From Actinomycetota bacterium (GTDB taxonomy: Bacteria; Actinomycetota; Acidimicrobiia; Spongiisociales; UBA5794), in contig JAADIG010000052.1 in NCBI GenBank assembly GCA_013151445.1, positions 2 to 64,001 of the forward strand: a DNA stretch of 64,000 bases. Direction: 5' to 3'. The notes beneath the pieces are model-generated. The model saw only the letters and a program-made list of their open reading frames with translations. It searched no databases and was not told where the DNA came from. The position numbers and the translations under genes are program-made. Below are positions 8,149 through 60,304 of the stretch, piece by piece; position 1 is the first letter of the stretch; the number at the start of each line of letters is the position of its first letter.

Positions 8149-8961
8149 TTACTCGTCGTACGACACAGCCTCATCAGGTGACGAGTTGAGCGTGAGCACA
8201 AACGCTGCGCACCGAGTGTCCCGGACTACTTCGACGGTGATCTGTCCGTTTCGTGCGCTGTAGACATCGCCGGTGGCCTCGTCGGCAACGAGATCAAAGG
8301 TCTGCGTCCCACCCGAGAACAACCACTCCGTCGCGAACGCGCCGGAGGTATCAGCAAGAACACGAGACGTGCCCATTTCAGCTTCACCGTTCGCCACAAT
8401 GCGCAAGGTCGCCGTCTCGCCAACGTCGAGGTTGGTGACGTACCCGGATGCGCGTACGAGAATATCTGCCCGCGGGGTTGTCCCAAGCGGACATCCCACA
8501 ACCGAACTCGTCACCACGGTACCGCTCGCGATGGTGAACGTGGTGTCACTATTCACCGTTACCAACGAGTCCGTGTCGAACGCGTAGAGCGCCGGCTGAA
8601 AGTCGGTCGGACTCATACCTCCCAATAGTTCCGCGTTGTCCGCGTTCGCCACCGTGGCGTCCTCGGCTCCGAGGTACTCCGCGAAACGACGCATGAATGC
8701 AGCCATCTGCCCACGGGTCACGTTGTCTTCGGGGCAGAAGTTGGTGTTCGCCGGCGGGTTGCAACCAGCGGTCACACCGGCTCCGGCCAACCACTCAATA
8801 TCCGTCTCAAAGATAGATCCGTCGTCGTCGGTGAAGGTGTCGCTCGCCGCGAATACCGCCACCGGGACCACCGAGACGACCATCATTGTCGCCACCGCAA
8901 CAAGTAGCTTGCGGGACCCCTTCTCTCTCAGTTTCTTGAAACTCACGTTCTCTTCTCTCAT
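8149..8961 (-). CDS. Secreted protein with one cysteine-containing SLH-like repeat
   Basis: Signal peptide, then FTDDDGSIFETDIEWLAGAGVTAGCNPPANTNFCPEDNVTRGQMAAFMRR, which fits the SLH consensus (F-D...I..L...GI.G...F.P...VTR.E.A.FL.RAL). Confidence 0.7.
   Translation of the reverse strand: MREENVSFKKLREKGSRKLLVAVATMMVVSVVPVAVFAASDTFTDDDGSIFETDIEWLAGAGVTAGCNPPANTNFCPEDNVTRGQMAAFMRRFAEYLGAEDATVANADNAELLGGMSPTDFQPALYAFDTDSLVTVNSDTTFTIASGTVVTSSVVGCPLGTTPRADILVRASGYVTNLDVGETATLRIVANGEAEMGTSRVLADTSGAFATEWLFSGGTQTFDLVADEATGDVYSARNGQITVEVVRDTRCAAFVLTLNSSPDEAVSYDE
8676..8838 (-). repeat. SLH-like repeat module (1 copy)
   Basis: Protein-level repeat shared with the genes at 9140, 13916 and 28523. Confidence 0.6.
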
Positions 8962-9139
8962 GTCCGTAGCTGACCTCTTGCCAGCATTACCGGTAGAGAC
9001 ACCCGCAGTCGTGGGTTCTTACACAGATGGGTACGATTTCTCGTTTGTCATTCCTTGCGCCACCTTGATGGGGTGTTGTTGCGTTGATAACTACTGACTG
9101 TGGTAATTTGCCCACTGTGTGTTCGACTAACAGGGGAAC

Positions 9140-11305
9140 ATGATGCCGTTTATACGACAGATGCTACGCACCGCGCTCACCGTTACGCTGGCCGCCAGCC
9201 TGCTTGTAGCAATACCAGGCCTTGCGTCCGCGGGTCAGGGTTTTCGGGACGACGATGGGAATATCCACGAGAACTCGATTGAGGCGCTCTCCAACGCGGG
9301 GATCACTCAGGGCTGCGGCACCGAGGAGTTCTGTCCCGACGAGGCGGTAACCCGCGGGCAAATGGCCGCATTCCTCGACCGAGCCCTTTCCCTGCCCCCG
9401 GCGAGCGGTGTCGAGTTCGACGACGACGACGGATCGATCTTCGAGGGATCCATTGAGAGGATCGCGGCCGTCGGGATTACCAAGGGGTGTAACCCGCCGG
9501 CGAACACCAACTTCTGCCCCGATAGTTTCGTAACCCGCGGGCAGATGGCAGCGTTCCTGGTCCGGGCACTCAACCTGACCGACACGGGATCTGCCTCGTT
9601 TGTGGATGACGACGGGTCGATTTTCGAAACAGATATCGAGAAGCTCGCCCAGGCTGGTATCACCCAGGGCTGCAACCCGCCGGCGAACGATCAGTTCTGT
9701 CCCTACTCTCGTGTGACGCGAGCACAGATGGCAACGTTCCTCACCAGAGCCCTCGACCTTCCGACCCAGCCGCCACCCGGATTCACCCTCGGGAACGAGG
9801 ACACGGCCCTCGTAACCCGATACGAGTCACGTCGCGATACCAGCGAGGGTCAGATACCCGATACCTACAACGCGCGGTACTCCCCACGTTCGTTCACCAC
9901 AGGTCTGGACGTCCTGCCCGATCCCGACGACGTCGACCTCGTCAATAGCCCGGGCCGCTACGACGGCTGGGATGTCCTCTCTCCGTCTACTCGCTGGGAG
10001 CACCTCAACCGCGGACCCGACCCGGATTGGTTCCGTTTCACCCTCAGTCGTGATGCCCGTGTCGGTGTCGTGTGGCGGAGCGACGAGACACCACCCGGGT
10101 GGTTATCCGGGTGGACGAAGGGCGGAACAGTCATCATCGACGACCGCATCCACGATGTCTACGAGAAGGACTTCGCGGCGGGTGAAATCAAACTCGGCAG
10201 CGTGGAGGGTCAGAACGGTTGGCGCAGAATGTATCTCGTGCTGCTCGCCGAGACCGATGGCACACCTACACCGACGCCACCGGCCCCCGAGGGTTGGTCC
10301 ACCCCATTGCCGAATCGACCGTGTTCTGCATGGGTACATGATCTCAACACAACCGTCGCCCCGGACGGCGAGTCCTATGTGAACTGGCACCCACAGATCG
10401 ATCCCGTCTACTGGTGTTCCTACGGGCACGATCACGGCTCCGACCCGGCAATCATCCCCGGCAACCCACTTGTCGGGTACGGATACGTAGCCGCCGCGGT
10501 GCCCCAGGTCGAACCTCATGGTGGGTTCAAGGAATTCATCATGGAGTCGCCCGATGGTGACTACTGGCTTAGATTCATCATCCATGCGGGGACAGCCTTC
10601 GAAAGACGAATCTGCGCCCGCTTCCACACGCTCTTCATCATGGTGTACGACAAAGCGGGAAACGAAAAGTTCTCGGTCGGATACAAGAACGACTACGGAA
10701 CAGCCACCGACAGTGACGGCAACGTATTAACACCGACAGATTGTGGATACTCAATGCCAGCGCTCGCCAACGAGGTTTCCGATCGGCAGAAACGCACCAT
10801 CAACGTCGGTGCTGCCAGCGATAACTACGAGCGTTGGGACTCAAGGTTCGAGACTGACGCGGTCCGCAACCTCGGCATGGTCGTGTTTGAGCACGAGTTC
10901 GATGTCATCAACCCGATATCAGCCTGTACGAACCGCACATGCAACGATGTTGTCGTGCGCGACCTTGAGCGGTTCGACGCGACACGAAGACAGATCTTCC
11001 TCGCCAGTTGGCGAGGAGACTTCGAGTTCGATGCCGATCACGCCCTCGGCCAGGGTGAGTATTTCACCGACCCCTTCGCCCAGGGCCTCGTGGACGCCTC
11101 GGCCTCGAACGCCCTGCGCCAATACGTCGAACCCGGTTTCAAGCTCACGATTGCAAAGAACGCGACCGCAAACCGAATCGGCTGTGTCTCGTGGGATCCG
11201 TGGAGCCAGGAATTCATCTGCTACCAAACCGGAGGCTCCGGGAACCGCGAGAATATCCCGTTCCCACCCCGCAAGAACCTCGAGTACGGCATCTGGCGCG
11301 ACTAA
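9140..11305 (+). CDS. Secreted protein, 3 x SLH-like repeats + ~500-aa domain of unknown function
   Basis: Signal peptide and three tandem ~55-aa repeats, each with GC(N)PP..FCP and VTRGQMAAFL.RAL. Divergent from the gene at 8149..8961. Confidence 0.75.
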   Translation: MMPFIRQMLRTALTVTLAASLLVAIPGLASAGQGFRDDDGNIHENSIEALSNAGITQGCGTEEFCPDEAVTRGQMAAFLDRALSLPPASGVEFDDDDGSIFEGSIERIAAVGITKGCNPPANTNFCPDSFVTRGQMAAFLVRALNLTDTGSASFVDDDGSIFETDIEKLAQAGITQGCNPPANDQFCPYSRVTRAQMATFLTRALDLPTQPPPGFTLGNEDTALVTRYESRRDTSEGQIPDTYNARYSPRSFTTGLDVLPDPDDVDLVNSPGRYDGWDVLSPSTRWEHLNRGPDPDWFRFTLSRDARVGVVWRSDETPPGWLSGWTKGGTVIIDDRIHDVYEKDFAAGEIKLGSVEGQNGWRRMYLVLLAETDGTPTPTPPAPEGWSTPLPNRPCSAWVHDLNTTVAPDGESYVNWHPQIDPVYWCSYGHDHGSDPAIIPGNPLVGYGYVAAAVPQVEPHGGFKEFIMESPDGDYWLRFIIHAGTAFERRICARFHTLFIMVYDKAGNEKFSVGYKNDYGTATDSDGNVLTPTDCGYSMPALANEVSDRQKRTINVGAASDNYERWDSRFETDAVRNLGMVVFEHEFDVINPISACTNRTCNDVVVRDLERFDATRRQIFLASWRGDFEFDADHALGQGEYFTDPFAQGLVDASASNALRQYVEPGFKLTIAKNATANRIGCVSWDPWSQEFICYQTGGSGNRENIPFPPRKNLEYGIWRD
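9236..9750 (+). repeat. Three tandem SLH-like repeat modules
   Basis: Repeated motif at both DNA and protein level. The antisense ORF 9307..9675 is its mirror image. Confidence 0.65.
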
Positions 11306-11356
11306 CTCCGCTGGCAGCGGAGGGACGCAGGTTACTCGTTCATATCGGCGATATGA

Positions 11357-12178
11357 TTGCGGGTGATGACATCCACGCATCTCGTAGTCTCGCCATGGGA
11401 GCGACTTGCGGCGCGCATCAGGATGCCCCTGACCGCCGTCACTGTCGTGTCGCTAGCGGTCGACGTGTTCCTACCAGTCCCGCGATGGTGGCCGTGGATA
11501 TACATCGCGACGGCGATCCCGGCGACCGCACTGTACTTCAGGCTGGCCACGCCGCACGCAGATCCCGTTGATGTCACGGCACCCGTGCAAGGTCGATGGC
11601 AAGCGGTGAACAGTCCCACGTCGCGGGTTCCCAGCCACTACGTTCACGCATGGGCCCAAACGTACGCGATCGATCTGGTTTTCGATCCAGCCGACGGGTC
11701 GCGCCCAGAAATGTCGTGGTGGCCGCTGGTGCGGCACCCGACAACATACCCGGGATTCGGACAGCCGATTGTGGCTCCGATCGATGGCACGGTCGTCCGC
11801 GTCCGTTCCTTCATGCGGGACCATCTGAGCCGATCCTCACCCCCGGCACTGCTCTACTTGTTAGTTGAGAGCGTCCGGGAGTTCTTCGGTCCCATCGGCA
11901 TCCTCGGTAACCACATCGTCATCCGCAGAGACGATGGGACGCACCTACTACTCGCCCACCTCCGGCAGGGCTCCTTGCTCGTCAAACGCGGCGATCGAGT
12001 GGCCCGGGGAACCAAGATCGCGGAATGCGGAAACTCCGGCAACTCCAGCGAACCACATGTGCACATCCAAGCGATGGACCGGGCCAGCGTGTGGATTGCC
12101 GCTGGTCTTCCAATCCGATTCGACCATGGGGAACCCCCGGCGAACGGTGATCTCCTACCGACCGATGCGACGCTGTAG
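11357..12178 (+). CDS. M23 family metallopeptidase (LytM domain), membrane-anchored
   Basis: GNHIVIRRDDGTHLLLAHL...CGNSGNSSEPHVHIQ matches the M23 HxxxD / HxH motifs. N-terminal hydrophobic segments. Start uncertain. Confidence 0.75.
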   Translation: MRVMTSTHLVVSPWERLAARIRMPLTAVTVVSLAVDVFLPVPRWWPWIYIATAIPATALYFRLATPHADPVDVTAPVQGRWQAVNSPTSRVPSHYVHAWAQTYAIDLVFDPADGSRPEMSWWPLVRHPTTYPGFGQPIVAPIDGTVVRVRSFMRDHLSRSSPPALLYLLVESVREFFGPIGILGNHIVIRRDDGTHLLLAHLRQGSLLVKRGDRVARGTKIAECGNSGNSSEPHVHIQAMDRASVWIAAGLPIRFDHGEPPANGDLLPTDATL

Positions 12179-12220
12179 CGAATCTGACGACCGATCGGAG
12201 CCGTGTGCCCGACGCACGAC

Positions 12221-13084
12221 CTACGGCTCGGTGCCGGGTGGTGGTTGTGGCAGGGTCGTCCGAGTCACCTGGTCATAACCAAGGTGTTGCTCTCGTGGGC
12301 GTGTGTCCGCCCCGGGGATCCGCGCCAGGAGGTCCGAAAACTCGGGAGCATCCGCATACTGCATCGCATCCAGTGCCGCCTCCGACAGCGCCCCCCTCGA
12401 AGCCAACGTGCGCCGATCCGAGTACGCCGTCCACAACCGGACCCCATGGGCCTGACCGCCAGAGGCCGACGGCAGCTCAACGTATGTGGACCGAGGACTC
12501 GCCAGCACAATCTTTCTCGCAACTCCATTCTCGAATCCCACGACCCGGTATTTGCCGACAATCAGGATGCGCAAACCGACGGTGTCAATGGAACCGATGG
12601 TTTCGGGCACGAACGCCGAGTCCGCCCGCTTGGAAAATGCGACTGCAACAACATCTCCCGAAACCAGGGTTCCGGCATCGGTACCGTCAGCCAAGAGAAT
12701 TTCGACCACCTTGACTGTCAACACTTGAAAGTCGTATGGCCCGTTCACGCCACGACCTTCGGAGTTCATGGAGGCCGGGGGTTCCGGGGTCCGGTACTCT
12801 TCAATGGCGGCCCCTCCAACCGAAACTATCTCGCCGACCATCACCAGCGGCGAACGTTTAACCGCCTGCTCGAAAGTCAGCTGCACCACAGAGGTAGCGT
12901 TGTATGAGCGGGACGGGTCAGAATCTTCGGTGACTGTGGGCGTAGCGAAGCCAACGTTCGCCTCGCCACCTGCAAGAGGCGGCTGAGCCTCGACGGTGAC
13001 TGCCGCACCGCTAGCGGCACATGCAGAAACGGCGAGAGTGACAACCAGGACGACGCAGAGCGTGCCGTGACGCTTCCGCCTCAT
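12221..13084 (-). CDS. Lipoprotein (hypothetical)
   Basis: MRRKRHGTLCVVLVVTLAVSAC, a signal peptide plus lipobox. Confidence 0.6.
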   Translation of the reverse strand: MRRKRHGTLCVVLVVTLAVSACAASGAAVTVEAQPPLAGGEANVGFATPTVTEDSDPSRSYNATSVVQLTFEQAVKRSPLVMVGEIVSVGGAAIEEYRTPEPPASMNSEGRGVNGPYDFQVLTVKVVEILLADGTDAGTLVSGDVVAVAFSKRADSAFVPETIGSIDTVGLRILIVGKYRVVGFENGVARKIVLASPRSTYVELPSASGGQAHGVRLWTAYSDRRTLASRGALSEAALDAMQYADAPEFSDLLARIPGADTRPREQHLGYDQVTRTTLPQPPPGTEP

Positions 13085-13449
13085 GTTGAGCATTGCTCGT
13101 AGCTCCTTTCAATCCACCACTCGTACAGGCGTCGGTTGCCGAACCGCGCGGGACCGGACTCGGCGGCCGCCGACATCACCCACAGACACCATCGTGTGTC
13201 GACTCCAACTGTTTTGACGGACTAACCCGGTTCCGTGGTTCCCGTGAACGTGTTCAAGTTTCCGGCGGCCCCGGCGACGCAACGGCCGGTTGGCTCCTAC
13301 CGGCCGATCGGCGCTGGCGGACAACCTCTTTACGACAGTGATCTCGCGGCCGAATTCCTGACCCGCCGCTGGGTCAGTCGGTTTCGCGAGGAGATATCCG
13401 AGACGTATGTAGAACCCTGCTGCGGGACGTTGTGTTCGTAATAACAGAG

Positions 13450-13904
13450 TCACATCCGCTCGAGACCGGTATTCATACCCCACGTTTCGAGCGCTCCAAC
13501 GAGGGCATCCGCGATGCCCGAACCGCGCAGCTCCGTGCGACCCACATGCCGGACGTCTCGTCCTCGCGAACATACGCACCGGCCATGGCCTCGACTGTTC
13601 CGTTGGCCTCGGCGACGAAGACGACCCGCTCTCCCCCGGCCGATGCGGTGGTCGCTCGCTCGGCCCACGGGTCGTCACCATAGGTTGGTGCGATATCCAG
13701 AGTCGTGGCGAACGCCGCGGAATCCTCGGCCAATCCCCGCAGACGGATTGCCCGCAGGGTTGCACCGTCACCGTCCCATATCCGCCGCACGGAGAGTTGC
13801 GTCGTTATCTCGCCACTGTATCGAAACCGTCTCCGAAGGACAGGAACGGCCTCTGCACCACAAGGCGCATGTTTCCTAAACTTTGGTAGGGTTGAAAGCG
13901 ACAC
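13450..13904 (-). pseudogene. GNAT family N-acetyltransferase, apparent frameshift
   Basis: The N-terminal two-thirds are in ORF 13473..13904. GNAT motif A (RGSGIADALVGALETWG) is in a different frame (ORF 13450..13668). The frames switch near 13560-13600. Confidence 0.4.
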
Positions 13905-13915
13905 ATTTGCGAGAC

Positions 13916-15001
13916 ATGGAAGTGGGACACATGCAACCTCGACGATTTGTTCTTCTCGGCCTGGCCGTGGTCACGGCGCTGTCCGTAGCCGTACCGGCAA
14001 CCGCAACCGATGCGTTCACCGATGTGCCGGACACCAACGTATTCTCGGCTGATATTCAATGGTTGGAGGATGCCGGCATCACCCAGGGATGCAACCCGCC
14101 AGCCAACGACCGCTTCTGCCCAACGGAGAACGTCACCCGCGAGCAAATGGCCGCATTTCTCGTCCGCTCACTCGGCCTCACCGACAACGGCGGCGGAAAC
14201 ACCTTCACCGACGACGATGGCTCCGTGTTCGAGAACGACATCGCCAAACTCGCCGCCGCAGGAATCACCCAGGGATGCAACCCACCGACCAACGACCGCT
14301 TCTGCCCAACAGAGAACGTCACCCGCGAGCAAATGGCCGCATTCCTCCATCGCTCCCTTGATCCGGCACCAAACCAGGTGCAGGATCTCATCGTCACCCT
14401 GAGCGGAGGCAGCAATGAGATAGACGTCTCGTGGGAGCCAAACCCCGAAGCGGACATTGCCAGCTACAACGTGTGGTTCAGCGAACTGCCGGGTGGAGCG
14501 AAGGCAATCGTCCCCGAGCCGTACACGTTCGGTCCTGCGACGAGGACGTCGGGACGTTGGTACATCATCGACTGGCCACGGGCGCAAACGTCGGGAGAGA
14601 CCTGTTATCAGGTCAGCGCCGTCGATGCCTCTGGTCAAGAAAGCCCCCGATCGGTAGAGGAGTGTTTTGACTCCACACCTGGCGCACCAACTCAGGTCAT
14701 GGGCGTGACCGTCGGGTTGGGCGGCGGCAGCGGAGAAGTGTTTGTGTCGTGGGACCCGAATCCTGAGGGCGACATTGCTTCCTACAACGCCTATTTCAGC
14801 GAGTTTCCCGGGGGACCGTACACGTACGTCCCGGAACCGTACTTCTTCGGACCGGACACACTCATGTCGGGTCGGGTCTACTTCATCGATCAGCCACGGG
14901 AAGACACAGTCGGCAAGACGTGTTATATCATCACCGCCGTCGACCTGAATGAAAAAGAGGGACCTGCCTCGGTGGAAGGATGCTTCGACCCTGACGCGTA
15001 G
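13916..15001 (+). CDS. Secreted protein, 2 x SLH-like repeats + 2 x FN3-like repeats
   Basis: Signal peptide (start at 13916 or 13931). Two SLH-like repeats nearly identical at DNA level, then two ~100-aa Ig/FN3-like modules. Confidence 0.75.
   Translation: MEVGHMQPRRFVLLGLAVVTALSVAVPATATDAFTDVPDTNVFSADIQWLEDAGITQGCNPPANDRFCPTENVTREQMAAFLVRSLGLTDNGGGNTFTDDDGSVFENDIAKLAAAGITQGCNPPTNDRFCPTENVTREQMAAFLHRSLDPAPNQVQDLIVTLSGGSNEIDVSWEPNPEADIASYNVWFSELPGGAKAIVPEPYTFGPATRTSGRWYIIDWPRAQTSGETCYQVSAVDASGQESPRSVEECFDSTPGAPTQVMGVTVGLGGGSGEVFVSWDPNPEGDIASYNAYFSEFPGGPYTYVPEPYFFGPDTLMSGRVYFIDQPREDTVGKTCYIITAVDLNEKEGPASVEGCFDPDA
14012..14333 (+). repeat. Two tandem SLH-like repeat modules (near-identical at DNA level)
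   Basis: 14081-14160 versus 14262-14345 are almost identical (atcacccagggatgcaaccc...cgcgagcaaatggccgcattc). Confidence 0.7.
14371..14998 (+). repeat. Intragenic tandem duplication (~310 nt x 2) encoding FN3-like modules
   Basis: Protein repeats ...VSWEPNPEADIASYNVWFSELPGG... and ...VSWDPNPEGDIASYNAYFSEFPGG... Confidence 0.65.
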
Positions 15002-17062: not shown

Positions 17063-18211
17063 CTACTCGCCGCTTGGCTTGAGCTCGACAGTGATCGGCG
17101 TCCAGCCCGATCCGTTCACATCAACCCCAGCGGCCTTCAAGTTGTCGAGGGCTTCCTGGGCGATGTCGGTTCGGAATGCCCCGTCCGTCGGGGGTGCGGT
17201 GAGGATGCTCTCGGTGGTCGCGACTGAGACTGTCTGATCCCACAGACTCTTGTCGAGGAGACCGATACCGTTCGACGACGGCCAAATGAGACCGTTGATC
17301 TCGTTCATCTGCCACTTCTGATGCGACTCGCCGAGTGTTGGACCGGCTGCGAGCACGATGTCCACGCACTTGTCGACGTTGTCCCTACAGAATATCCAAC
17401 CCCGCATCGATGCTTCGACGAACTTCACCGCGTTAGCTCGATACTCGGGATCGGATTCGAGTTTGTCCGCATCCGCCCAGATGGCATCCTGGAGCATCGC
17501 GGTGCCGACGTCGTTCCAATTGATGACATTGAGATCATCGGCGGTGAACAGTTCACCAGTCTCCGGATTGGTTGTTTCGAGGACCTGTGCGTACTCGTTG
17601 TAGATCATTGCCTGGGCGGCATCGATTTCACCCGAGATGAGGGCCAGCATGTCGAACTGTTGCTGGACCAGCGTGACATCGGTGTCGGGATCGAGTCCTG
17701 CACTGCGCAATCCGGCGAGGAGCTCGAACTCGTTACCGAATCCCCAGTTACCGACCGTCTTACCGGCAAGATCGGCGACCGACGTTATGCCCTTGTCCTT
17801 GAATGAGACCTGGAGAGTCGCCGACCTCTCGAAGATCTGCGCGATGTTGGTGATGTTCAGGCCCTCTTCGCGAGGCACCAGGCCACGCGGAACCCACGAA
17901 ATCGCAAAGTCGGCGGCACCCGAATCCAAAACGGTTGCAGGCAGGATATCGATGCCACCCTGGGTGATCGTTACGTCGAGACCGAGATCCTTGTAAAACC
18001 CTTGGTCGACAGCGGCGTAATAGCCGGCGAACTGCGCCTGTGTGAACCACTGCAACTGCAACGTGATCGGTGTTAGTTCCTTCGCATCGCCACCACCATC
18101 AGCACCAGTCGTGGCCGTATCATCGGCACCACCACCGCACGCGGCGGCGATAAGCGCCATGGCAAGCACGAAACCGAACAGCCTCGCGTTGCCTTTCTTC
18201 CTCTTCGTCAT
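17063..18211 (-). CDS. ABC transporter substrate-binding lipoprotein (NMT1/THI5-like, NitT/TauT family)
   Basis: Lipobox LIAAAC and a NitT/TauT-type SBP fold. Confidence 0.85.
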   Translation of the reverse strand: MTKRKKGNARLFGFVLAMALIAAACGGGADDTATTGADGGGDAKELTPITLQLQWFTQAQFAGYYAAVDQGFYKDLGLDVTITQGGIDILPATVLDSGAADFAISWVPRGLVPREEGLNITNIAQIFERSATLQVSFKDKGITSVADLAGKTVGNWGFGNEFELLAGLRSAGLDPDTDVTLVQQQFDMLALISGEIDAAQAMIYNEYAQVLETTNPETGELFTADDLNVINWNDVGTAMLQDAIWADADKLESDPEYRANAVKFVEASMRGWIFCRDNVDKCVDIVLAAGPTLGESHQKWQMNEINGLIWPSSNGIGLLDKSLWDQTVSVATTESILTAPPTDGAFRTDIAQEALDNLKAAGVDVNGSGWTPITVELKPSGE

Positions 18212-18248
18212 AGACCCTCTCCTTGTCTAGTTTCCCTGGTCGGAACCC

Positions 18249-19034
18249 TTAACTGCCAGACCGCTCAATCTCCGTGACTCTCCATGGCATGAACCATCGT
18301 TCAAGACCAACCACGACGAGGTAAAGCGCCATCCCCATCAGCGTACCCGCGAGGACCCCGGCCCACGCAGATGAATAGCGTGACAGGGCGGCCTGCTGGA
18401 CAATCAGCTGGCCAAGCGCGGCCTGATCGCCACCGAAGTACTCGGCAACAATTGCTGCAATCACCGCAAGCGATGACGCGATCTTGAGTGAAGTAAAGAG
18501 GTATGGGAGTGCGTTGGGAATCCTGACCTCTTTGAGTGTCTCCCAGGTGCTCGCGGCGAACGATTCCATCAGATCGAGCTGGCCACGATGGACCTCCGTC
18601 AGTCCCCGCACTGAGTTCACAAACACCGGGAAGAACACCAAGAGGACAACGATGCCCTGGTTCGATCGTGGCGAACGAAGACCGAACCAGAAGTTAAAGA
18701 TTGGGGCGAGAGCGATTATGGGAATTGCGTTCACGGCCACTGCGAGCGGCGTCACCGCTTCGCTCACGATCTGGAACCGCGAGACAAGTATGGCAACCAT
18801 GATCCCGAGCAGCGCCCCCGCGATCAGACCAGTCACGGCAATGAACCCAGTGTTGGTGGTGGCCGTGATAATCGTGCTCCACTGCTCAACCACCTTGCCC
18901 GCAATAACGGAGGGACGCGGAAGAACGAAGGCCTTGGGGTTCAGCACGGTCAGCACCAACTCCCACAGGGCAAGACCGCCGACACCGACTACCAGTGGTG
19001 GGGCGATTGCGCGCAGCCTGGCATGGTTCGTCAT
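18249..19034 (-). CDS. ABC transporter permease (NitT/TauT family)
   Basis: Six-TM BPD-transporter pattern with an EAA-like loop. Stop/start overlaps with neighbours. Confidence 0.85.
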   Translation of the reverse strand: MTNHARLRAIAPPLVVGVGGLALWELVLTVLNPKAFVLPRPSVIAGKVVEQWSTIITATTNTGFIAVTGLIAGALLGIMVAILVSRFQIVSEAVTPLAVAVNAIPIIALAPIFNFWFGLRSPRSNQGIVVLLVFFPVFVNSVRGLTEVHRGQLDLMESFAASTWETLKEVRIPNALPYLFTSLKIASSLAVIAAIVAEYFGGDQAALGQLIVQQAALSRYSSAWAGVLAGTLMGMALYLVVVGLERWFMPWRVTEIERSGS

Positions 19035-19822
19035 GGCACCTCGACCGCTCGGAGAGCTTCGCGGACCTCGGTGATCTTGTTAAAGAACTCGGGGTCTTCG
19101 CGGGTACCGAACCCACGGGGTCCCAAATCCACATCGATGTCGGCGACTATACGGCCGGGTCGAGGCGACATCACGATCACACGTTGGGCGAGGAACACGG
19201 CTTCGGGGATTGAGTGTGTCACGAACACCACTGACGTTTGTGTGTCCTCCCATATCCGGAGGAGCTCGGCCTGCATATGCTCGCGGGTCATCTCGTCCAG
19301 CGCCCCAAAGGGTTCGTCCATCAGCAGAATCGAGGGCTTGAACGACAGGGCTCGCGCAATCGCGACTCGTTGCTGCATGCCGCCCGAGAGCTGGTTCGGA
19401 TAGTGATCGCCAAAGTCGCTGAGCTGGACAAGATCCAGCATCTCCGCACTACGTTTTGATCGTTGATCCTTGGACCAGCCGAGCAGTTCGAGTGGCAGTT
19501 CGATGTTCCTCGTTACGGTCCGCCAATCGAACAGGCTCGCACTCTGGAAGGCCATCCCGTAGTCCCGGTCGCGGCGAGCCTGATCGGCCGCCTTCCCATT
19601 CACAAATATCTCACCTTCTGTGGCGGGGACCAATCCGGCCATCAGACGGAGCAGGGTCGACTTGCCACAACCCGAGGGTCCGATCAGAGCAACAAACCCA
19701 CCCTGGCGGACCGACAGGTTGATACTTTCGAGAGCTACGACCTGATTCGGTTTGCCACGGCTGAAGATCTTGCTCGCTGCCCTTGCTTCGACGGCCACCG
19801 ATACGGGTGCGGAAGTGCTCAT
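19031..19822 (-). CDS. ABC transporter ATP-binding protein
   Basis: Walker A GPSGCGKST, LSGGMQQRVAIARAL signature and Walker B LLMDEPF. Confidence 0.9.
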   Translation of the reverse strand: MSTSAPVSVAVEARAASKIFSRGKPNQVVALESINLSVRQGGFVALIGPSGCGKSTLLRLMAGLVPATEGEIFVNGKAADQARRDRDYGMAFQSASLFDWRTVTRNIELPLELLGWSKDQRSKRSAEMLDLVQLSDFGDHYPNQLSGGMQQRVAIARALSFKPSILLMDEPFGALDEMTREHMQAELLRIWEDTQTSVVFVTHSIPEAVFLAQRVIVMSPRPGRIVADIDVDLGPRGFGTREDPEFFNKITEVREALRAVEVP

Positions 19823-20784
19823 ACGACTGGGTTCTCCTGCGCTCTTCCCCTAAGGGCGTAACGTTCGGCGATCGAGATGAGACCGAAAACGACAATGCCG
19901 AGCACAGCTGCACCGGCGACCGAGGCATAGAGACGTTCGGGACCCGTTGTGTACCGGGATGCGAAGTCGAGGATGAGACGACCGATGCCCCCACCGACAC
20001 CGGAAGAGATCTCGCCGACAATGGCACCGACAATGCTCGCTGATGCGGCGAGCTTCAATGCGGCAAAAAGGTACGGCACCGATGCGGGAAACCGCAGCTT
20101 AAGCAAGGTCTGCGTACGGCTCGCCGCATAGGAGTCCATGAGTTCGATCGATTCGGCGGACGGTGACTGAAGCCCCTTGAGCCCATTCACCGCGACTGGG
20201 AAAAAGGTGAGATAGGTCGCAATGATCGAAACCGACATCCACGCGTTCCACGTAAACGGCAGCCAGCCAAAGTTTGTTTGGCCCCAAATGACGATGATCG
20301 GCGCAATCGCGACCAGTGGGACTGTCTGAGACACTACGACATAGGGCATCAGTCCCCGCTCGATCGTCCGTGAACGCAACATAAGGATGGCCAGCGAGAG
20401 TCCGAGCACTATCCCGGCGACGAAACCAAAAAAGGCCTCACGTGCGGTGAACAGCGATGCCTCGAAGATGAACTGACCAAGCGTCTTGGCGTTTCGGCGC
20501 TGCGGTGGATCATCGAACTCGGATAGGATCGCCGAGATCGGCGGCATGATCAGATCATTGGTTGCTGGCATGACCGACCCAATCACCGGCCAGTCGCGTT
20601 GGGCATCATCGATCGACTGTCCCACGGCCTTGTACCCGCTGTACAGCAGACTCAGAGCGATAACGAAGGCCGCAAAAACCACGACCCTTCGTACGACGTT
20701 TCTCAGGCGAGCGCGGCGTTCGTAACGACGGATCTCGGCGCGCACTACAGCCGCGTCGACCCCTTCGTCCAGACTGTCCACCAC
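19819..20784 (-). CDS. ABC transporter permease (NitT/TauT family, second subunit)
   Basis: Polytopic membrane protein paralogous to 18249..19034. Confidence 0.85.
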   Translation of the reverse strand: MVDSLDEGVDAAVVRAEIRRYERRARLRNVVRRVVVFAAFVIALSLLYSGYKAVGQSIDDAQRDWPVIGSVMPATNDLIMPPISAILSEFDDPPQRRNAKTLGQFIFEASLFTAREAFFGFVAGIVLGLSLAILMLRSRTIERGLMPYVVVSQTVPLVAIAPIIVIWGQTNFGWLPFTWNAWMSVSIIATYLTFFPVAVNGLKGLQSPSAESIELMDSYAASRTQTLLKLRFPASVPYLFAALKLAASASIVGAIVGEISSGVGGGIGRLILDFASRYTTGPERLYASVAGAAVLGIVVFGLISIAERYALRGRAQENPVV

Positions 20785-20805
20785 TCGGTCCCTCCCTAGC
20801 GCCGA

Positions 20806-21807
20806 CTAACCATTGATTGCCGGGATGATCTCATCACCATAGGCGCGGAGAGTCTCCTCTTTGCCGTCGTGCTGGAGGTAGATCGAGAACTGGTCGACTC
20901 CCATATCCCGCAGCTCCCGGAGCCGAGCGATATGGTTTTCCACCGGGCCGAGAAGACAGAACCTGTCGATAAGGTCATCGCTCACGAAATCGACATGAGT
21001 GCTCTCGGAGCGACCGTGTTCCTGGTAGTCGTAACCCTTGCGCCCTTCAATGTAGGACGTGAGCTCGGCGGGGATGAGTGCAGTGTCGGTGCCGTATCGA
21101 CCGACGAGGTCCGCAACATGGTTACCGACCATGCCACCGAACCAGCGAACCTGGTCCCTCTGGTGTGCAATGTCATCGCCGACATAGGCGGGTGCCGCAA
21201 CGCACATGTAGAGGTCATCGGGGTTGCGTCCCGCGGATTCGGCAGCATCGCGCACCGCCTGAATCATGTACTTCGTCAGGTACGGATCGGCGAGCTGCAG
21301 GATGAATCCGTCTGCCTTCTGTCCGGTGAGAGCAAGCGTTTTCGGTCCGTACGCCGCCACGAGCATCGGGACTCGAGTTTTCTTCGCCCATGGGAACTGC
21401 ACCGTGACGCCGTTGTACTCGACTTCTTCACCCTGGGCCAGGGCCCTGATGATGTCGATTGACTCACCGAGCTCGGCAAGACGACAGGGTTTCTTGCCAA
21501 TCACCCGCAGCGCTGAGTCACCGCGACCCATGCCAATGACGGTCCGTTCTCCATACATCTCATTGAGCGTCGCAAAGAGGCTCGCGGTGACCGTGATGTC
21601 ACGTGTCCCCGGATTCGTAACCATCGGCCCAACGGTCATGTTTTGTGTTTTGGCGAGCATCTGTGAATAGATGACGAACGGCTCCTGCCAAAGGACGTGA
21701 CTGTCAAACGTCCATGCATAGTTGAAGCCCCTCTTCTCGGCCTCAACCGTCAGGTCGATGACGGCCTGCGCCGGTGGGTCGGTTTGAAAAACTACGCCAA
21801 AATCCAT
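20806..21807 (-). CDS. LLM-class (luciferase-like) flavin/F420-dependent oxidoreductase
   Basis: MDFGVVFQTD start and TIM-barrel LLM pattern. The start is chosen to avoid overlap with mmsA. Confidence 0.8.
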   Translation of the reverse strand: MDFGVVFQTDPPAQAVIDLTVEAEKRGFNYAWTFDSHVLWQEPFVIYSQMLAKTQNMTVGPMVTNPGTRDITVTASLFATLNEMYGERTVIGMGRGDSALRVIGKKPCRLAELGESIDIIRALAQGEEVEYNGVTVQFPWAKKTRVPMLVAAYGPKTLALTGQKADGFILQLADPYLTKYMIQAVRDAAESAGRNPDDLYMCVAAPAYVGDDIAHQRDQVRWFGGMVGNHVADLVGRYGTDTALIPAELTSYIEGRKGYDYQEHGRSESTHVDFVSDDLIDRFCLLGPVENHIARLRELRDMGVDQFSIYLQHDGKEETLRAYGDEIIPAING

Positions 21808-21818
21808 GCACTTGTCTC

Positions 21819-23306
21819 CTATTCGCTCTGTGGGAAACCGAGATCGATGGTGCTTGATGCAGGGTCGGGCCACCGACTCGTGATGACCTTCGCCTTGGTG
21901 TAGAAGTGGATCCCCTCCGGGCCGTACATGTGAGTGTCACCAAAGAGCGACTCCCCCCATCCGCCGAACGAGAATGATGCAACAGGCACCGGGATGGGAA
22001 CGTTGATGCCAACCATGCCAGCATCAACGTCAATCTGGAACTTGCGAGCAGCACCACCGTCACGGGTAAAGATCGCGGTGCCATTGCCCCAGGCATTCGT
22101 GTTGATCATCTCAAGCGCTTCGTCATAGGAGTCGACACGCACAACACCGAGCACGGGACCGAAGATCTCTTCGTCGTAACATTTCATGCCGGGTTTCACG
22201 TTGTCCAGCAGCGAAGGCGCCAGGAAGAAACCATCACCTTGGACTGGACTGTCACGGCCATCGACGAGCACGGTGGCACCCTCACCGGCGGCCTCAGCAA
22301 CATACGCCTCGACACGATCTCGATGTTCCCGGGTGATAAGCGGACCCATGCCCGACTCGGGGTCCGTTCCGGGACCAACCTTCACCTGCGGGATTCGCCT
22401 CTCGATGGCTTCAACCAGCGGGTCAGCGGCGGAACCGACAGCGACGACCACCGAGATTGCCATGCAACGCTCCCCCGCGGATCCATAACCTGCCGAAACT
22501 GCGGCGTCTGCCGCCACGTCAATATCGGCATCGGGCAGCACCACCATGTGGTTCTTCGCACCACCGAGCGCCTGAACACGTTTTCCACGGGCGGTGCCGG
22601 TCTCGTACACATATCGGGCGATCGGGGTTGAGCCGACAAAGCTGATTGCCTTCACCGTCGGATGCTCAAGCAGCCGATCGACTGCCACCTTGTCACCGTG
22701 GACGACGTTGAACACTCCCTCGGGAAGCCCGGCCTCATGAATCATCTCCGCAAGCAGCATCGTCACCGACGGGTCTTTCTCCGACGGTTTCAACACGAAG
22801 GTGTTCCCCGCCGCAATGGCGTTCGGGAACATCCACAGCGGGACCATGGCTGGGAAGTTAAACGGGGTGATACCAGCGACAACACCAAGGGGCTGGCGGA
22901 CCGTGTACACATCAACACCACGTGACGCCTGTTGCGTGAACTGACCCTGTAGCAGTTGGGCCGCGCCGCATGCGAACTCGATGTTCTCAAGTCCACGGGT
23001 GACCTCGCCCATCGCATCCGAGAGCACCTTGCCGTGTTCTGCGGTGAGCGCTGCGGCGATATCCGCCCGGTTCCGATGCGCTATCTCGCGAAACGCGAAC
23101 AGGACTGCGGTACGTTGGGCAAGTGACGTGTGCCGCCACGACTCGAAGGCCTTCGCAGCGGTGGAAACGGTGCGGTCTATTTCGTCAACCGTTGCGAGAG
23201 GCGTTGCCGCGGTCTGCTCTCCGGTGGCCGGGTTGTAGACCGGACTCGTGCGGTCCGATACCGACTCGACCATCTTCCCGCCAATGAAATGGGTAATTGT
23301 CTTCAC
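21819..23306 (-). CDS. mmsA: CoA-acylating methylmalonate-semialdehyde dehydrogenase
   Basis: VYNPATGE, GITPFNFPAMVPLWMFP and catalytic C in GSAGERCMA. GTG start with GAAAGGA upstream. The longer ORF N-terminus is out-of-frame shadow. Confidence 0.85.
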   Translation of the reverse strand: MKTITHFIGGKMVESVSDRTSPVYNPATGEQTAATPLATVDEIDRTVSTAAKAFESWRHTSLAQRTAVLFAFREIAHRNRADIAAALTAEHGKVLSDAMGEVTRGLENIEFACGAAQLLQGQFTQQASRGVDVYTVRQPLGVVAGITPFNFPAMVPLWMFPNAIAAGNTFVLKPSEKDPSVTMLLAEMIHEAGLPEGVFNVVHGDKVAVDRLLEHPTVKAISFVGSTPIARYVYETGTARGKRVQALGGAKNHMVVLPDADIDVAADAAVSAGYGSAGERCMAISVVVAVGSAADPLVEAIERRIPQVKVGPGTDPESGMGPLITREHRDRVEAYVAEAAGEGATVLVDGRDSPVQGDGFFLAPSLLDNVKPGMKCYDEEIFGPVLGVVRVDSYDEALEMINTNAWGNGTAIFTRDGGAARKFQIDVDAGMVGINVPIPVPVASFSFGGWGESLFGDTHMYGPEGIHFYTKAKVITSRWPDPASSTIDLGFPQSE

Positions 23307-23352
23307 CGAACTGTCCTTTCGAGGGTCACAGGCGTGTTCATCTGCACCGGTG

Positions 23353-24777: not shown

Positions 24778-24799
24778 GTTTTCCTCCAGGTCGTACAGG

Positions 24800-26095: not shown

Positions 26096-26097
26096 GG

Positions 26098-26940: not shown

Positions 26941-27059
26941 TTGCTCCATCCCATTCCGTGAGACACACATCGGCGACCGACCACCCGTCGGCTTGCACCG
27001 ACTATATGCACCAGACTACGTTGACACAACTAACTCTTTGTTACACACAAAAGACCTTC
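26941..27059. promoter_or_regulatory. Divergent promoter/operator region between catabolic operon and MocR regulator
   Basis: Three ACACA-core motifs (gtgagACACACatc, gttgACACAActa, tgttACACACaaa). Confidence 0.3.
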
Positions 27060-28522: not shown

Positions 28523-31048
28523 ATGACTACACGCCTCCGGACGTGGAGCGCCGCAGCCGCTTTCCTCACGTTCGCCGCGCTAGTGCCGCTCACTGCCACT
28601 CCGGCAACGGCCGCTACCGACACGACCTACCTTGACGAGGGGTACGAGTCGACTCCCGCAACATGGAGCGCGGGCTGGTTTGATGCCGACATCGGTGCCC
28701 GCAACCGTATTACCTCGATCGCGGACGGTATCGACGGACAGGGCATCAAGGTAACCATTCCTCGCGATGAGCATTTCGGGTCCGCAATGCGGTGGGAGTT
28801 CGAGGCGAACGGAAAGACCGAACCGGACGAGCTCTACTACAGGTACTGGCTCCGATTCCCCATCGGTTTCGCAAACTACGGCCAGGGCAAACTTCCCGGA
28901 CCGTCGGGCCTTTACTCAAGCTCCGGCCGGAACAAGATCAAACCAAGCGACGCCAACCCGGGTTGGTCGGCGCGAATGATGTTCACATCACCCGACCCGG
29001 GACGAACCGCAACTAACACCCAGATCGGCTACTACGTGTACCACCGTGGGCAGCCCGGGTCGTCCGGAGAGACCGAGCCATGGCAGGACTCCCCTGGGGT
29101 TCTTGAGCACGGTCAGTGGTACTGCATCGAAGGCCGGGTGGCGATGAACACACCCGGTGTTGCAAACGGTGTTCTTGAAGGGTGGGTTGACGAGAAACTT
29201 GCCTACTACGAGAACGATTTCACGTTCCGAGGCGCATCGGATGCAGGCATCAACGTCCGCGAATTCTGGTTTGACACTTACTACGGCGGCGATGCGACCG
29301 CACCCGGTTCACTCTCATTCGACTTCGACGAACTAGTGCTCTCGGACCAACGCGTCGGGTGTGGCGAACGAGGATCCGGGTTCCGCGACACGAGTGGCAA
29401 CGTTCATGAGTCCAACGTCGACAAGCTGGCATTCGCCGGTATCACGAAGGGCTGTAACCCGCCGAACAATTCACGCTTCTGCCCCGATGACAACGTGAGT
29501 CGGGGCCAAATGGCGGCGTTCCTCGACCGTGCGTTAGACCTGGCGCCCACGACCACGGATTTCTTCGATGATGATGCCGGTTCGGTGTTCGAGGCGAACA
29601 TCAACCGTCTCGCCGCGTCCGGAATCACTCTCGGATGCGGGGTGAGGACATACTGCCCGAATGATCGTGTCACTCGTGGTCAGATGGCCGCCTTCCTCAC
29701 AAGGGGGCTTTCCCTCCCGACCGGAGGGTCCGACCTGTTTGTCGACGACAACGGGTCTCCGTTCGAGAACGCTATCGACAGAATGGCATCGGCCGGTATC
29801 ACGGCCGGGTGCAATCCCCCGGCCAATGACCGTTTCTGTCCGTATAACAACGTCACCCGTGGACAAATGGCGTCGTTCCTGAGTCGGGCGCTTAAGCTCC
29901 CGACCCCGCCGCCGCCGCCGCCCGGGTACGTTGCTCCGACGATCCCAGACGGTTACGACGCGGTTGTACCTCTTGGGTGGTCGATCCAGGATGTGATCGA
30001 ACAACAGCCCGCAGGAGCGAAGATTCTGGTGCGTGCCGGCACCTACGAACGCCAGGAGATCCGTCCCAAGGCCGGCCAGACGATCGTCGGAGAACCGGGA
30101 ACCAAGCTCGATGGGTTGTGGGCCTACAGCTATGCGTTCACGGACATCAACAACCCGGTAGATGGAGTGACAATCAGCGGATTCGAGGTGACGCGCTACA
30201 ACTCCGTGGCAGGGACGGGTGCGATTCACGGTGCCGGCAACAACTGGACGGTGTCGAACTGCGTCGTGCACGACAACAAATACAACGGTGTCACCGTGTC
30301 CGACGGAGGCACCATCACCGGATGCAGAATCTATGACCACAACTACGAGGCGATCATTCTCACCAATGTGAAGAACGTCACCATCTCGAACAATGAGATC
30401 GACAACAACGGTGACCCTTCCAATTATCAGGCGGGCGTCGATGCGAAGTACCAGGCCGGTATCAAGCTCGTCAACACCGCCAATGTGGTGATTTCGGGGA
30501 ACAACATCCGCGACAACGCCGGTTACGGCATCTGGGGATACACCGACAACATCAATACCGTGTATTCGAACAACACGATCACCAATAACTGGCGGGGTGG
30601 CATCAACCACGAGCTGTCCTACAGCGTGTCGATAGCAGACAACGTTATCAAGAGCAACGGTGTTGCGCCGACATCACCGAAGCCGGACAACCTCTACGAC
30701 GCCGGCATTGTTGTACGAGGACCCGATGCCACGATCACCGGGAACACACTCGACGGGAACCACAACGGCATCGGCATCATCGGCTACGACCTCGACGGGC
30801 AGACCGGTCGTTACGGGTCGCTCAAGGCGTCCGGAGCGCTTGTGAGCAACAACACCATCACCAACTCGGGACAAACCGGGGTCGTCACCAATGGTGCGAA
30901 CATTGCAACCGGCGTGTTTACCGACAACCGCTACTTCTATCCGAATGTCTCCTCCTACTGGTTCCGTGACGGCACCGGTGGTGGACGTACATGGTCTCAG
31001 TGGCAGACCAGCGGCCAGGATCCGAACGGTACGTTCACGATCAACTAA
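28523..31048 (+). CDS. Secreted enzyme: lectin/lyase-like N-domain + 3 x SLH-like repeats + right-handed beta-helix (pectate-lyase-fold) domain
   Basis: Signal peptide MTTRLRTWSAAAAFLTFAALVPLTATPATA. Three SLH-like repeats at 29381-29900. PbH1-type repeats (NNWTVSNCVVHDNKYNGVTV...ISNNEIDNNGD...ISGNNIRDNAGYGIWG). Confidence 0.8.
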   Translation: MTTRLRTWSAAAAFLTFAALVPLTATPATAATDTTYLDEGYESTPATWSAGWFDADIGARNRITSIADGIDGQGIKVTIPRDEHFGSAMRWEFEANGKTEPDELYYRYWLRFPIGFANYGQGKLPGPSGLYSSSGRNKIKPSDANPGWSARMMFTSPDPGRTATNTQIGYYVYHRGQPGSSGETEPWQDSPGVLEHGQWYCIEGRVAMNTPGVANGVLEGWVDEKLAYYENDFTFRGASDAGINVREFWFDTYYGGDATAPGSLSFDFDELVLSDQRVGCGERGSGFRDTSGNVHESNVDKLAFAGITKGCNPPNNSRFCPDDNVSRGQMAAFLDRALDLAPTTTDFFDDDAGSVFEANINRLAASGITLGCGVRTYCPNDRVTRGQMAAFLTRGLSLPTGGSDLFVDDNGSPFENAIDRMASAGITAGCNPPANDRFCPYNNVTRGQMASFLSRALKLPTPPPPPPGYVAPTIPDGYDAVVPLGWSIQDVIEQQPAGAKILVRAGTYERQEIRPKAGQTIVGEPGTKLDGLWAYSYAFTDINNPVDGVTISGFEVTRYNSVAGTGAIHGAGNNWTVSNCVVHDNKYNGVTVSDGGTITGCRIYDHNYEAIILTNVKNVTISNNEIDNNGDPSNYQAGVDAKYQAGIKLVNTANVVISGNNIRDNAGYGIWGYTDNINTVYSNNTITNNWRGGINHELSYSVSIADNVIKSNGVAPTSPKPDNLYDAGIVVRGPDATITGNTLDGNHNGIGIIGYDLDGQTGRYGSLKASGALVSNNTITNSGQTGVVTNGANIATGVFTDNRYFYPNVSSYWFRDGTGGGRTWSQWQTSGQDPNGTFTIN
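29381..29900 (+). repeat. Three tandem SLH-like repeat modules
   Basis: FRDTSGNVHESNVDKLAFAGITKGCNPPNNSRFCPDDNVSRGQMAAFLDRAL and two further copies. Confidence 0.65.
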
Positions 31049-33911: not shown

Positions 33912-33914
33912 GAC

Positions 33915-35869: not shown

Positions 35870-35993
35870 GTAGTTCCTATTTCATCTCGGAGACCCGCAG
35901 CGCACGCGGTCGCACTTTGTGTTGGTGTCCCCTCCGCCACAGAAGGGAATGCTACCGACGAGACGGGTTTAGGCCAACTGTAGTCCGGGTAGG

Positions 35994-37125: not shown

Positions 37126-37170
37126 AACAGGCGCGATGGTAACCACATGACACGAGGCCGCGATGTCGCG

Positions 37171-39804: not shown

Positions 39805-39845
39805 GAGGTAGCAATTGTAGAGCGCTCCGAGGCTATCGGAGCGCC

Positions 39846-52151: not shown

Positions 52152-52222
52152 AGTCAGAGAATAGTGCTTCGTTCAGTTACGTCTGCGAAGGACGCGAAGC
52201 GGTACCCGGGCTAGTACGCCGC

Positions 52223-52772: not shown

Positions 52773-52784
52773 AGTTTTACCCGG

Positions 52785-53003: not shown

Positions 53004-53078
53004 AGAAAGAAAGGTAGGCGTCTAGCGCGCCATCACCAAGGACCCGCGTCGCTCCCGTCGTCGAATCACAAAACCGTC

Positions 53079-57625: not shown

Positions 57626-57626
57626 A

Positions 57627-60171: not shown

Positions 60172-60304
60172 AACCGCATACTGTCTGAATCTGGGCGAAA
60201 GTGACTAAACACCAACGGCAGGTACGCCGAAGTAGAACCAGGAAGTTGAAGCCGACGGGCAACACGAGATGTGGACTCGTCGGAAGACAAAGGATGATCG
60301 ACGA

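Follow-up and report, generated by a model that had tools for sequence, protein, structure and literature searches.

A 64-kb window of DNA from a bacterium of the class Acidimicrobiia, phylum Actinomycetota (the window being the whole stretch analysed, 64,000 nucleotides), encodes four proteins with predicted export signals that carry nine copies of a module of ~52 amino acids (aa). The module is a true S-layer homology (SLH) domain, in which two cysteines at canonical SLH positions 30 and 36 most likely form a disulfide across the loop between its two helices. The genes lie at 8149..8961 (- strand), 9140..11305 (+), 13916..15001 (+) and 28523..31048 (+), and are referred to here by their first coordinate.

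We consider it probable that these are surface proteins of an Acidimicrobiia type, exported by Sec, bound through their SLH grooves to a wall glycopolymer and carrying a disulfide in the loop. Each of the four proteins would be exported by Sec. Outside the membrane the SLH repeats would fold as two-helix units, three of which would pack into a three-pronged spindle; this would be supplied within one chain in the two triplet proteins and, probably, by oligomerisation in the one- and two-repeat proteins. The grooves between the units, lined by the Gly29 loop and by Arg43 (in a TRGQ motif that stands for TRAE), would bind an anionic wall glycopolymer non-covalently. The cargo would thereby be held at the cell surface: an enzyme with a polysaccharide lyase family 14 (PL14) domain and a beta-helix, a pair of FN3-like modules, a His-rich domain with a beta-sandwich like that of a carbohydrate-binding module (CBM), and a small domain. 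The Cys30–Cys36 disulfide, usually closed around a three-residue NPP insertion, would make the inter-helix loop, one wall of the ligand groove, more rigid.

Identity of the module

Profile, sequence and predicted fold provide three independent lines of evidence that the module is a true SLH domain. The Pfam SLH model (PF00395) matches all four proteins above its gathering cut-off of 20.8 bits, with scores of 21.5 (8149), 44.2 (9140), 39.7 (13916) and 37.3 (28523), and matches 90 of 93 relatives at E <= 1e-4. With phmmer, the triplet of the 9140 protein aligns with every one of the three SLH repeats in Sap of Bacillus anthracis (3PYW/6BT4; E = 5e-6). An AlphaFold2 model of residues 30–215 of this protein, built on an alignment of 77 sequences, has six helices in three pairs (predicted local distance difference test, pLDDT, 94.6; predicted template-modelling score, pTM, 0.89) and presents the predicted three-pronged spindle of three two-helix repeats. 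In a Foldseek search of the PDB, the best 15 matches to the model are all SLH trimers of Sap or of Paenibacillus alvei SpaA, with E values from 1e-9 to 1e-6, template-modelling (TM) scores of 0.64–0.84 and root mean square deviations (rmsd) of 2.0–3.9 Å. The Sap trimers give TM 0.75–0.84 and rmsd 2.0–2.2 Å, the SpaA trimers TM 0.64–0.81, and the match that follows these 15 drops to E = 0.05.

An earlier description of these genes, read from the DNA sequence without database searches (the first-pass annotation), had called the module a divergent, SLH-like repeat. The relation to SLH stands on the profile, the Sap alignment and the fold; the epithet ‘divergent’ does not, in view of the Pfam matches to the relatives and of the name that NCBI already gives them, ‘S-layer homology domain-containing protein’. 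The Pfam model nevertheless usually reports only one or two of the three repeats in the subfamily, and precomputed matches are often ‘faint’ or absent (relatives P0014, P0040, P0055, P0120 and others). Membership of the SLH family holds in every test except that for Trp13, which is taken up below.

The module was sought in the 64 kb with a six-frame regular expression and with a hidden Markov model (HMM) built from the repeats and run on all six-frame segments. The two scans agree on exactly nine copies, distributed 1, 3, 2 and 3 over the four genes, just as the first-pass annotation had it, and the four open reading frames (ORFs) lie where it had placed them. The nine copies score 74–104 bits and the next-best match in the window 7.6 bits, a signal far above chance. 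Pairwise identities between the copies are 52–73% in protein and 57–76% in DNA, and the motif originally proposed for the module is the majority consensus both of 77 and of 93 database relatives. The description of the proteins as four paralogues applies to the module and not to the remainder of each protein.

The closest characterised relatives are the SLH trimers of the Firmicutes (Sap; SpaA, 6CWC–6CWR and 7SV3–7SV6; PF00395/PS51272), which are of the same family by profile, sequence and predicted fold. Like these, the window module is a two-helix repeat of ~55 aa that occurs in triplicate, with Gly29 and Arg43 in all three repeats, an extracytoplasmic location and fusion to diverse cargo. 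Unlike these, it has cysteine at positions 30 and 36, where the canonical domain typically has Tyr/Asn and Arg/Glu and no cysteine; it usually has the NPP insertion of three residues; an aliphatic residue or Thr replaces Trp at position 13, with Phe or His at 14; TRGQ replaces TRAE; an acidic DDDG precedes helix 1; and the host belongs to the Acidimicrobiia. An EF-hand or DxDxDG calcium loop was considered for the acidic stretch, FxDDDGS, and was dropped since the spacing does not fit.

The cysteine pair

Positions are numbered according to the PROSITE SLH scheme used in the structural study of SpaA (PMC6081394), into which the short-loop form of the repeat fits without insertion or deletion: GITQG occupies positions 25–29, the cysteines 30 and 36, Pro 37 and TRGQ 42–45. 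This short loop is found in two of the nine copies (GCGTEEFCP in repeat 1 of the 9140 gene and GCGVRTYCP in repeat 2 of the 28523 gene). The others are of the type GCNPPxNxxFCP, with three extra residues (NPP-type) between Cys30 and Cys36. Because two copies have the uninserted loop, the cysteines are substitutions at canonical SLH positions 30 and 36. An inserted GCNPP…FCP segment with an invariant cysteine pair had been proposed, of which the pair is upheld and the insertion shrinks to three residues.

The two cysteines are kept or absent together. Among 327 unique repeats (assigned by HMM columns, from ~0.7 Mb of related loci), 312 have both and 11 neither; the remaining 4 look like singletons but are fragments truncated at the end of a contig or an ORF. 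Once artefacts of the regular expression and truncated fragments, which accounted for several apparent single-cysteine repeats, are set aside, both cysteines are likewise present in every repeat of the top 120 word-index relatives and of 135 further representatives, although the number of residues that separate them ranges from 5 to 10 (for example CGTEEFC, CATNPARYC, CQQGTNPRYC and CNPPxNxxFC). The cysteine counts of the four window proteins are all even, at 4 (8149), 14 (9140), 8 (13916) and 10 (28523), and the mature part has an even number in 105 of 120 complete-looking relatives (binomial p = 8e-18). Given this strict co-occurrence and even parity, Cys30 and Cys36 are most likely joined by a disulfide that bridges the inter-helix loop within each repeat, so that a bond first put forward as plausible is now strongly suggested.

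Exported proteins of aerobic Actinobacteria are biased towards even numbers of cysteines and are disulfide-bonded, whereas aerobic Firmicutes exclude cysteine from theirs (PMC2823432). The pair might instead consist of free thiols, contribute to a metal site or cross-link separate chains, and it is true that in the SLH endolysin LysBT1 of a Firmicute the cysteines stabilise the protein without forming disulfides (PMC12285257). Such a role is very improbable here. The 327 repeats include no genuine singleton, both residues persist over the whole range of loop lengths in mature proteins of even cysteine number, and the proteins are extracytoplasmic in a phylum that oxidises exported cysteine pairs (PMC2823432). 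Neither does the repeat hold any further conserved His or Cys that could complete a metal site, in alignments of 77 and of 93 relatives.

A cysteine pair at a different position occurs in SLH proteins of the same class. In a metagenome-assembled genome (MAG) of Rhabdothermincola (L003:10001-10600, L004:889-1450), the SLH region also has three repeats and conserved cysteine pairs; unlike the window module, it has no cysteine at 30 and 36, the loop being of the canonical cysteine-free form GxxDGTFxP and the motif TRQA or TRMA. In its repeats 2 and 3 the linker between repeats supplies one cysteine of the conserved pair (PQCSEAPF) and the beginning of helix 1 the other (FCGEIAWM). From this second position of the pair, disulfide stapling of SLH domains seems to have arisen more than once in the Acidimicrobiia.

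Residues of the ligand groove

The structural work on SpaA defined Gly29, Arg43 and Trp13 as hallmarks of ligand binding (PMC6081394). Two of the three are almost without exception in the present subfamily: the same HMM-column analysis of related loci, comprising 336 repeats, finds Gly29 in all 336, within a GITxG motif where the canonical domain has GIIxG, and Arg43 in 335. Across 77 triplets G29, G87 and G148 are invariant, and all three equivalents of Gly29 and Arg43 are either invariant or at least 90% conserved. TRGQ is the predominant form of the TRAE-type motif (142), ahead of TRAQ, TREQ and SRGQ; of these, TRAQ is also functional in SpaA (PMC6081394).

Cys30, directly after Gly29, takes the position equivalent to Lys110 of SpaA, one of the residues that form the pocket; the backbone of the neighbouring glycine flips upon ligand binding (PMC6081394). 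The classical SLH ligand is a wall polymer with 4,6-pyruvylated N-acetylmannosamine (ManNAc), made with the participation of CsaB (PMC6081394, PMC6801904, PMC6030368). With Arg43 and Gly29 invariant, though Trp13 is lost, the ligand of the present module is most likely an anionic and possibly pyruvylated wall polymer.

The four proteins, their export and their cargo

The 8149 gene encodes a protein of 270 aa with a signal peptide at residues 1 to ~39 (...VAVFA/AS), a single SLH repeat (8683..8835, -; long loop GCNPPANTNFCP; 99.0 bits with the subfamily HMM) and a C-terminal region of ~170 aa, for which searches of Pfam and the PDB returned no match. The 721-aa product of the 9140 gene, which is identical to P0256 (JGI), has a signal peptide at residues 1–31 (...GLASA/GQ), an SLH triplet and a conserved cargo of ~500 aa (9785..11302, +). 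Repeat 1 of its triplet (9242..9388, +; 78.9 bits), which has the short loop and was numbered with G29, C30, C36 and R43, contains the best Pfam SLH stretch (aa 38–76). Repeat 2 (9416..9571, +; long loop GCNPPANTNFCP; 93.8 bits) aligns with SLH2 of Sap and repeat 3 (9599..9754, +; long loop GCNPPANDQFCP, motif TRAQ; 97.4 bits) with SLH3.

The 13916 gene, whose ORF opens at 13883 and whose start is at 13916 or 13931, encodes ~356–361 aa: a signal peptide (...VPATA/TD), two SLH repeats (14015..14173, +, 98.9 bits; 14204..14359, +, 103.9 bits) and two tandem FN3-like modules (fn3 E = 2.4e-5, 24.9 bits, slightly below the cut-off of 25). These FN3-like modules (14375-15001, +) are tandem duplicates, each with a conserved cysteine pair of its own (…TCY…C-F-D), which keeps the cysteine count even. 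The 28523 gene (ORF opening at 28445, likely start 28523) encodes an enzyme of ~841 aa. Its signal peptide (...TPATA/AT) is followed by a PL14 domain (28805..29296, +; PF21294, 49.9–57 bits against a cut-off of 27), an internal SLH triplet (29381..29893, +) and a right-handed parallel beta-helix of the pectate-lyase/NosD-like kind (30224..30748, +; PF13229 76–79 bits, PF05048 33–38 bits, TIGR03804). The three repeats lie at 29381-29536 (long loop, 91.2 bits), 29564-29707 (short loop, 74.3 bits) and 29738-29893 (long loop, 94.5 bits). The picture of an SLH anchor with differing C-terminal cargo is thus correct as to the diversity of the cargo, but in this protein the triplet lies between an N-terminal PL14 lyase (57 bits) and a C-terminal beta-helix (79 bits). 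Searches of the PDB with the sequences of the PL14 and beta-helix regions gave nothing useful.

In each of the four proteins a basic n-region and a 12-residue hydrophobic core (mean Kyte–Doolittle value 2.3–2.8) lead to an AxA-type site, with the first repeat or domain following closely. These are Sec-type N-termini, and all four proteins are predicted to be exported, in agreement with the signal peptides that were first annotated; a crude heuristic for signal peptides accepts 86 of 120 relatives.

The ~500-aa cargo of the 9140 protein has no Pfam model, but belongs to a conserved family whose fusion partner varies with the host: SLH in Acidimicrobiia, RTX repeats in other bacteria and Ig-like domains in Deinococcota. 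In an AlphaFold2 model (pLDDT 91.9), its first ~160 aa form a predicted beta-sandwich like the accessory domains of GH2 and GH138 enzymes (Foldseek against the PDB, E = 3e-5). Residues ~170–506, mainly beta, found no fold match in the same search. This remainder contains invariant His, Asp, Glu and Cys residues (WHPQIDPVYWC..GHEHG), and the domain may be a metal-dependent extracellular enzyme.

The cargo bears on whether the same fold could have a different task, as a carbohydrate-binding module that targets enzymes to an external polysaccharide or to other cells. Several of the cargo domains are or resemble polysaccharide-active ones (PL14, the beta-helix, the GH-like beta-sandwich), Trp13 is lost and the window has no csaB. 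However, the wider set of relatives speaks otherwise. Among 93 representatives, 67 different Pfam families of extracellular type occur in fusion with the module, and these are mostly not carbohydrate-active (trypsin, VanY, PKD, fn3, cadherin, cupredoxin and beta-propellers are among them). The triplet is N-terminal in 49 cases, C-terminal in 67 and internal in 14. Such diversity of cargo and variety of position is the signature of a promiscuous surface-display anchor. In addition, the two residues that bind the pyruvate of the wall polymer in SpaA and Sap, Gly29 and Arg43, are invariant here, and all characterised SLH trimers bind the cell wall of their own producer (PMC6081394, PMC5817068). 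An external target is improbable on these grounds.

Which wall polymer?

The reading of the four proteins as Sec-exported, groove-bound wall anchors has several observations to weigh against it. The signal peptides were assessed by manual inspection and heuristics, and the N-terminus of the two-repeat protein (13931-13990, +), which reads MQPRRFVLLGLAVV…, includes a twin-arginine-like RR-F-V-L, a possible signal for twin-arginine translocation (Tat). A true Tat signal would mean that the 13916 protein folds before export, which bears on the site of disulfide formation. Tat as the route for the four proteins was rejected, as RR-F-V-L occurs in the 13916 gene only and the other three are without it.

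Position 13 is Val in 146 repeats, Ile in 93, Thr in 35, Leu in 20 and Pro in 18 and is never Trp, while position 14 is Phe in 259 or His in 65; the register rests on the Sap alignment and on the gap-free numbering of the short-loop repeat. Trp13 is common among SLH domains but is not universal, and its loss therefore lowers confidence in the pose of the ligand rather than in family membership. The ligand, or the way in which it lies in the groove, may differ from that of SpaA, where Trp13 stacks on ManNAc (PMC6081394).

CsaB-like enzymes have been reported mainly from Firmicutes and Cyanobacteria (PMC6801904). No PF04230 pyruvyl-transferase was found in the window, among ORFs of at least 200 aa and in searches seeded with Escherichia coli WcaK and with the enzyme of locus L084 described next. 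A screen of the neighbourhoods of SLH genes with the cysteine pair (88 loci, 80 of them metagenomic, ~0.7 Mb; seeded with WcaK and then with the L084 enzyme) contains a single PF04230 enzyme. It is encoded by a frame of ~840 aa at L084:1464-3992 (-), with a weak GT2-like region and a clear PF04230 domain (70 bits), ~6 kb upstream of such an SLH gene on a contig of 31 kb. Routine linkage of csaB to these SLH genes was rejected on the strength of this single match. It should be said that csaB need not be linked to SLH genes. Among the relatives of the L084 enzyme are five proteins from MAGs assigned to the Acidimicrobiia by NCBI, and the class can therefore pyruvylate glycans, although extending this to the source genome or to ManNAc is conjecture.

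From ~60.2 kb to beyond the end of the window (60269-63921) lies a polysaccharide-synthesis cluster, in which an enzyme of the UDP-glucose/GDP-mannose-dehydrogenase family is encoded alongside a GT4 glycosyltransferase and a priming sugar transferase (Bac_transf). This cluster could make a wall polymer.

The domain may then be a wall anchor for something other than a 4,6-pyruvylated ManNAc polymer, be it another anionic wall glycopolymer of actinobacteria or peptidoglycan. The invariance of Arg43, which contacts the pyruvate, and of Gly29 argues against this, as do the PF04230 enzymes of Acidimicrobiia MAGs and the one found near an SLH gene with the cysteine pair, linkage of csaB not being required. 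On the other hand, Trp13 has given way to Val, Ile or Thr with the aromatic residue moved to 14, TRAE has become TRGQ, the loop after Gly29 is three residues longer and disulfide-constrained, csaB is unlinked over the 0.7 Mb of neighbourhoods, and direct binding of peptidoglycan by some SLH domains is debated (PMC5817068). A different wall ligand is a possibility that deserves to be taken seriously, if on balance a doubtful one, and an anionic, possibly pyruvylated polymer is still the ligand that we favour.

Proteins with fewer than three repeats

A full SLH unit requires three repeats. The 8149 and 13916 proteins, with one and two, probably oligomerise, by analogy with single-SLH proteins that do so: the OmpM/SlpA-type tethers of diderm Terrabacteria, and LysBT1 of Brevibacillus, a single-SLH endolysin that trimerises through its SLH domain (PMC12285257). 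In the 8149 and 13916 proteins, no coiled coil or beta-barrel is evident. In B. anthracis, two repeats suffice for interaction with the wall (PMC5817068).

The two repeats of the 13916 gene had been taken as near-identical in DNA and as a sign that duplication is ongoing. Neither statement survives a closer comparison. The repeats are 74% identical in DNA over 156 nt (gapped) and 89% over the best ungapped 101 nt; the C-terminal half of repeat 2 matches that of repeat 1 at 87–89% in DNA, and their N-terminal halves have strongly diverged. The orthologue in ‘Bacterium BMS3Bbin02’ contains both repeats and shares the residues that tell them apart (V as against H before R-[SA]-L, and different N-terminal halves); the duplication is therefore older than the separation of the two genomes. 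When the C-terminal halves are compared, the paralogous repeats share 87% identity within the window and 92% within BMS3Bbin02, and the orthologous ones 87–89%. Such similarity of the C-terminal halves fits strong constraint or selection, or occasional gene conversion.

Distribution and host

A search with the subfamily profile (HMMER) of 1.84 billion cluster representatives, the clusters being drawn at 50% identity, returned 6,388 at E <= 1e-30, 41,563 at E <= 1e-10 and 106,593 at E <= 1e-3, the last set being one that must include ordinary SLH domains. Relatives that carry a name are overwhelmingly from Acidimicrobiia or Actinomycetota MAGs, according to NCBI. The closest genome is BMS3Bbin02, unclassified at NCBI, in which the 721-aa protein is 91% identical. 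In another genome, at 58% identity, the gene for this protein is in synteny (ADI-MDMPI...PFK-YbaK-SLH protein) and is followed by a second SLH protein. The window itself encodes a mycothiol-type MDMPI and the F420 genes CofD and CofE, which fits an actinobacterium.

The possession of SLH triplets, typical of S-layer proteins, and the place of the 721-aa protein as a conserved syntenic core gene in related genomes would suit one or more of the four as constituents of a true S-layer lattice. We hold this to be highly unlikely: an SLH domain does not by itself define an S-layer protein (PMC5817068), the cargo looks enzymatic or adhesive, and no S-layer lattice has been reported for Acidimicrobiia in the searchable (open-access) literature.

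The SLH family and the NCBI label of the relatives were known. In open-access papers and preprints, we found no description of a disulfide-bearing SLH variant or of SLH in Acidimicrobiia. What is new is thus the widespread cysteine-pair version, which appears to be undescribed within that literature.

Neighbouring genes

Directly downstream of the gene for the 721-aa protein lies that of a membrane-associated M23 peptidase (11357-12178, +; 57 bits), followed by that of a 290-aa protein (12221-13093, -) with no Pfam match and a lipoprotein-like N-terminus (…LAVSAC…). With the SLH genes beside them, the two make up a small cell-envelope neighbourhood. A block of cell-division and secretion genes occupies 32727-40419 (-), with an M23 peptidase (120 bits), FtsX, an FtsE-type ABC ATPase, a peptide chain release factor and SecA. 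The SecA ORF is listed with 1082 aa. It overlaps the HD-domain gene upstream of it and reaches its DEAD domain only at residue 215, so the listed start is probably too far upstream.

Between the 13916 and 28523 genes, positions 17063-28391 look, from translations read by eye, like a block for reductive catabolism of pyrimidines or hydantoins. It comprises an ABC transporter (binding protein, two permeases and ATPase), a luciferase-like oxidoreductase, an aldehyde dehydrogenase, a dihydropyrimidinase/hydantoinase-like amidohydrolase, a class-III aminotransferase, an amidase of the nitrilase superfamily and a divergently transcribed regulator of the GntR/aminotransferase type. At 49950-58598, a DUF5719 protein stands between two large proteins, of 733 aa and 963 aa, that have no match in Pfam; they adjoin CofD and CofE, and the arrangement resembles the conserved actinobacterial synteny around fbiA/fbiB.

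Relation to other wall anchors and significance

Functionally, the CWB2 (PF04122) trimers of Clostridioides difficile are analogous to SLH trimers, with three repeats, an anionic wall polysaccharide as ligand, non-covalent attachment and conserved arginines (PMC5817068). They are of an unrelated sequence family and fold, and Pfam CWB2 has no match in the window proteins. Among anchors of this general kind, the cysteine-pair SLH domain is a modest variation on a known theme and not a new kind of system, and for an actinobacterium it is mechanistically unsurprising.

It is of interest nonetheless, for nearly all that is known of protein anchoring by SLH domains comes from Firmicutes, in which exported proteins avoid cysteine. 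Here is a very large and environmentally abundant subfamily in which a cysteine pair lies in the loop that forms the groove and the tryptophan that stacks on the sugar has been lost. This raises the structure–function question of whether the disulfide stabilises the domain, pre-organises the groove or retunes its specificity. Since the Pfam model under-detects the repeats, the SLH content of Actinomycetota MAGs is likely to be under-counted, and the surface proteomes of uncultured Actinomycetota under-annotated. A bolder proposal, which we think unlikely, is that the subfamily, stapled and without Trp13, has become adapted to a different wall glycopolymer of the Acidimicrobiia, and that the disulfide locks the Gly29 loop, which in SpaA has to flip when ligand binds, and so makes surface display sensitive to redox conditions outside the cell. 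If this were true, the adapted subfamily would constitute a distinct pair of ligand and anchor for a large and mostly uncultured class of actinobacteria.

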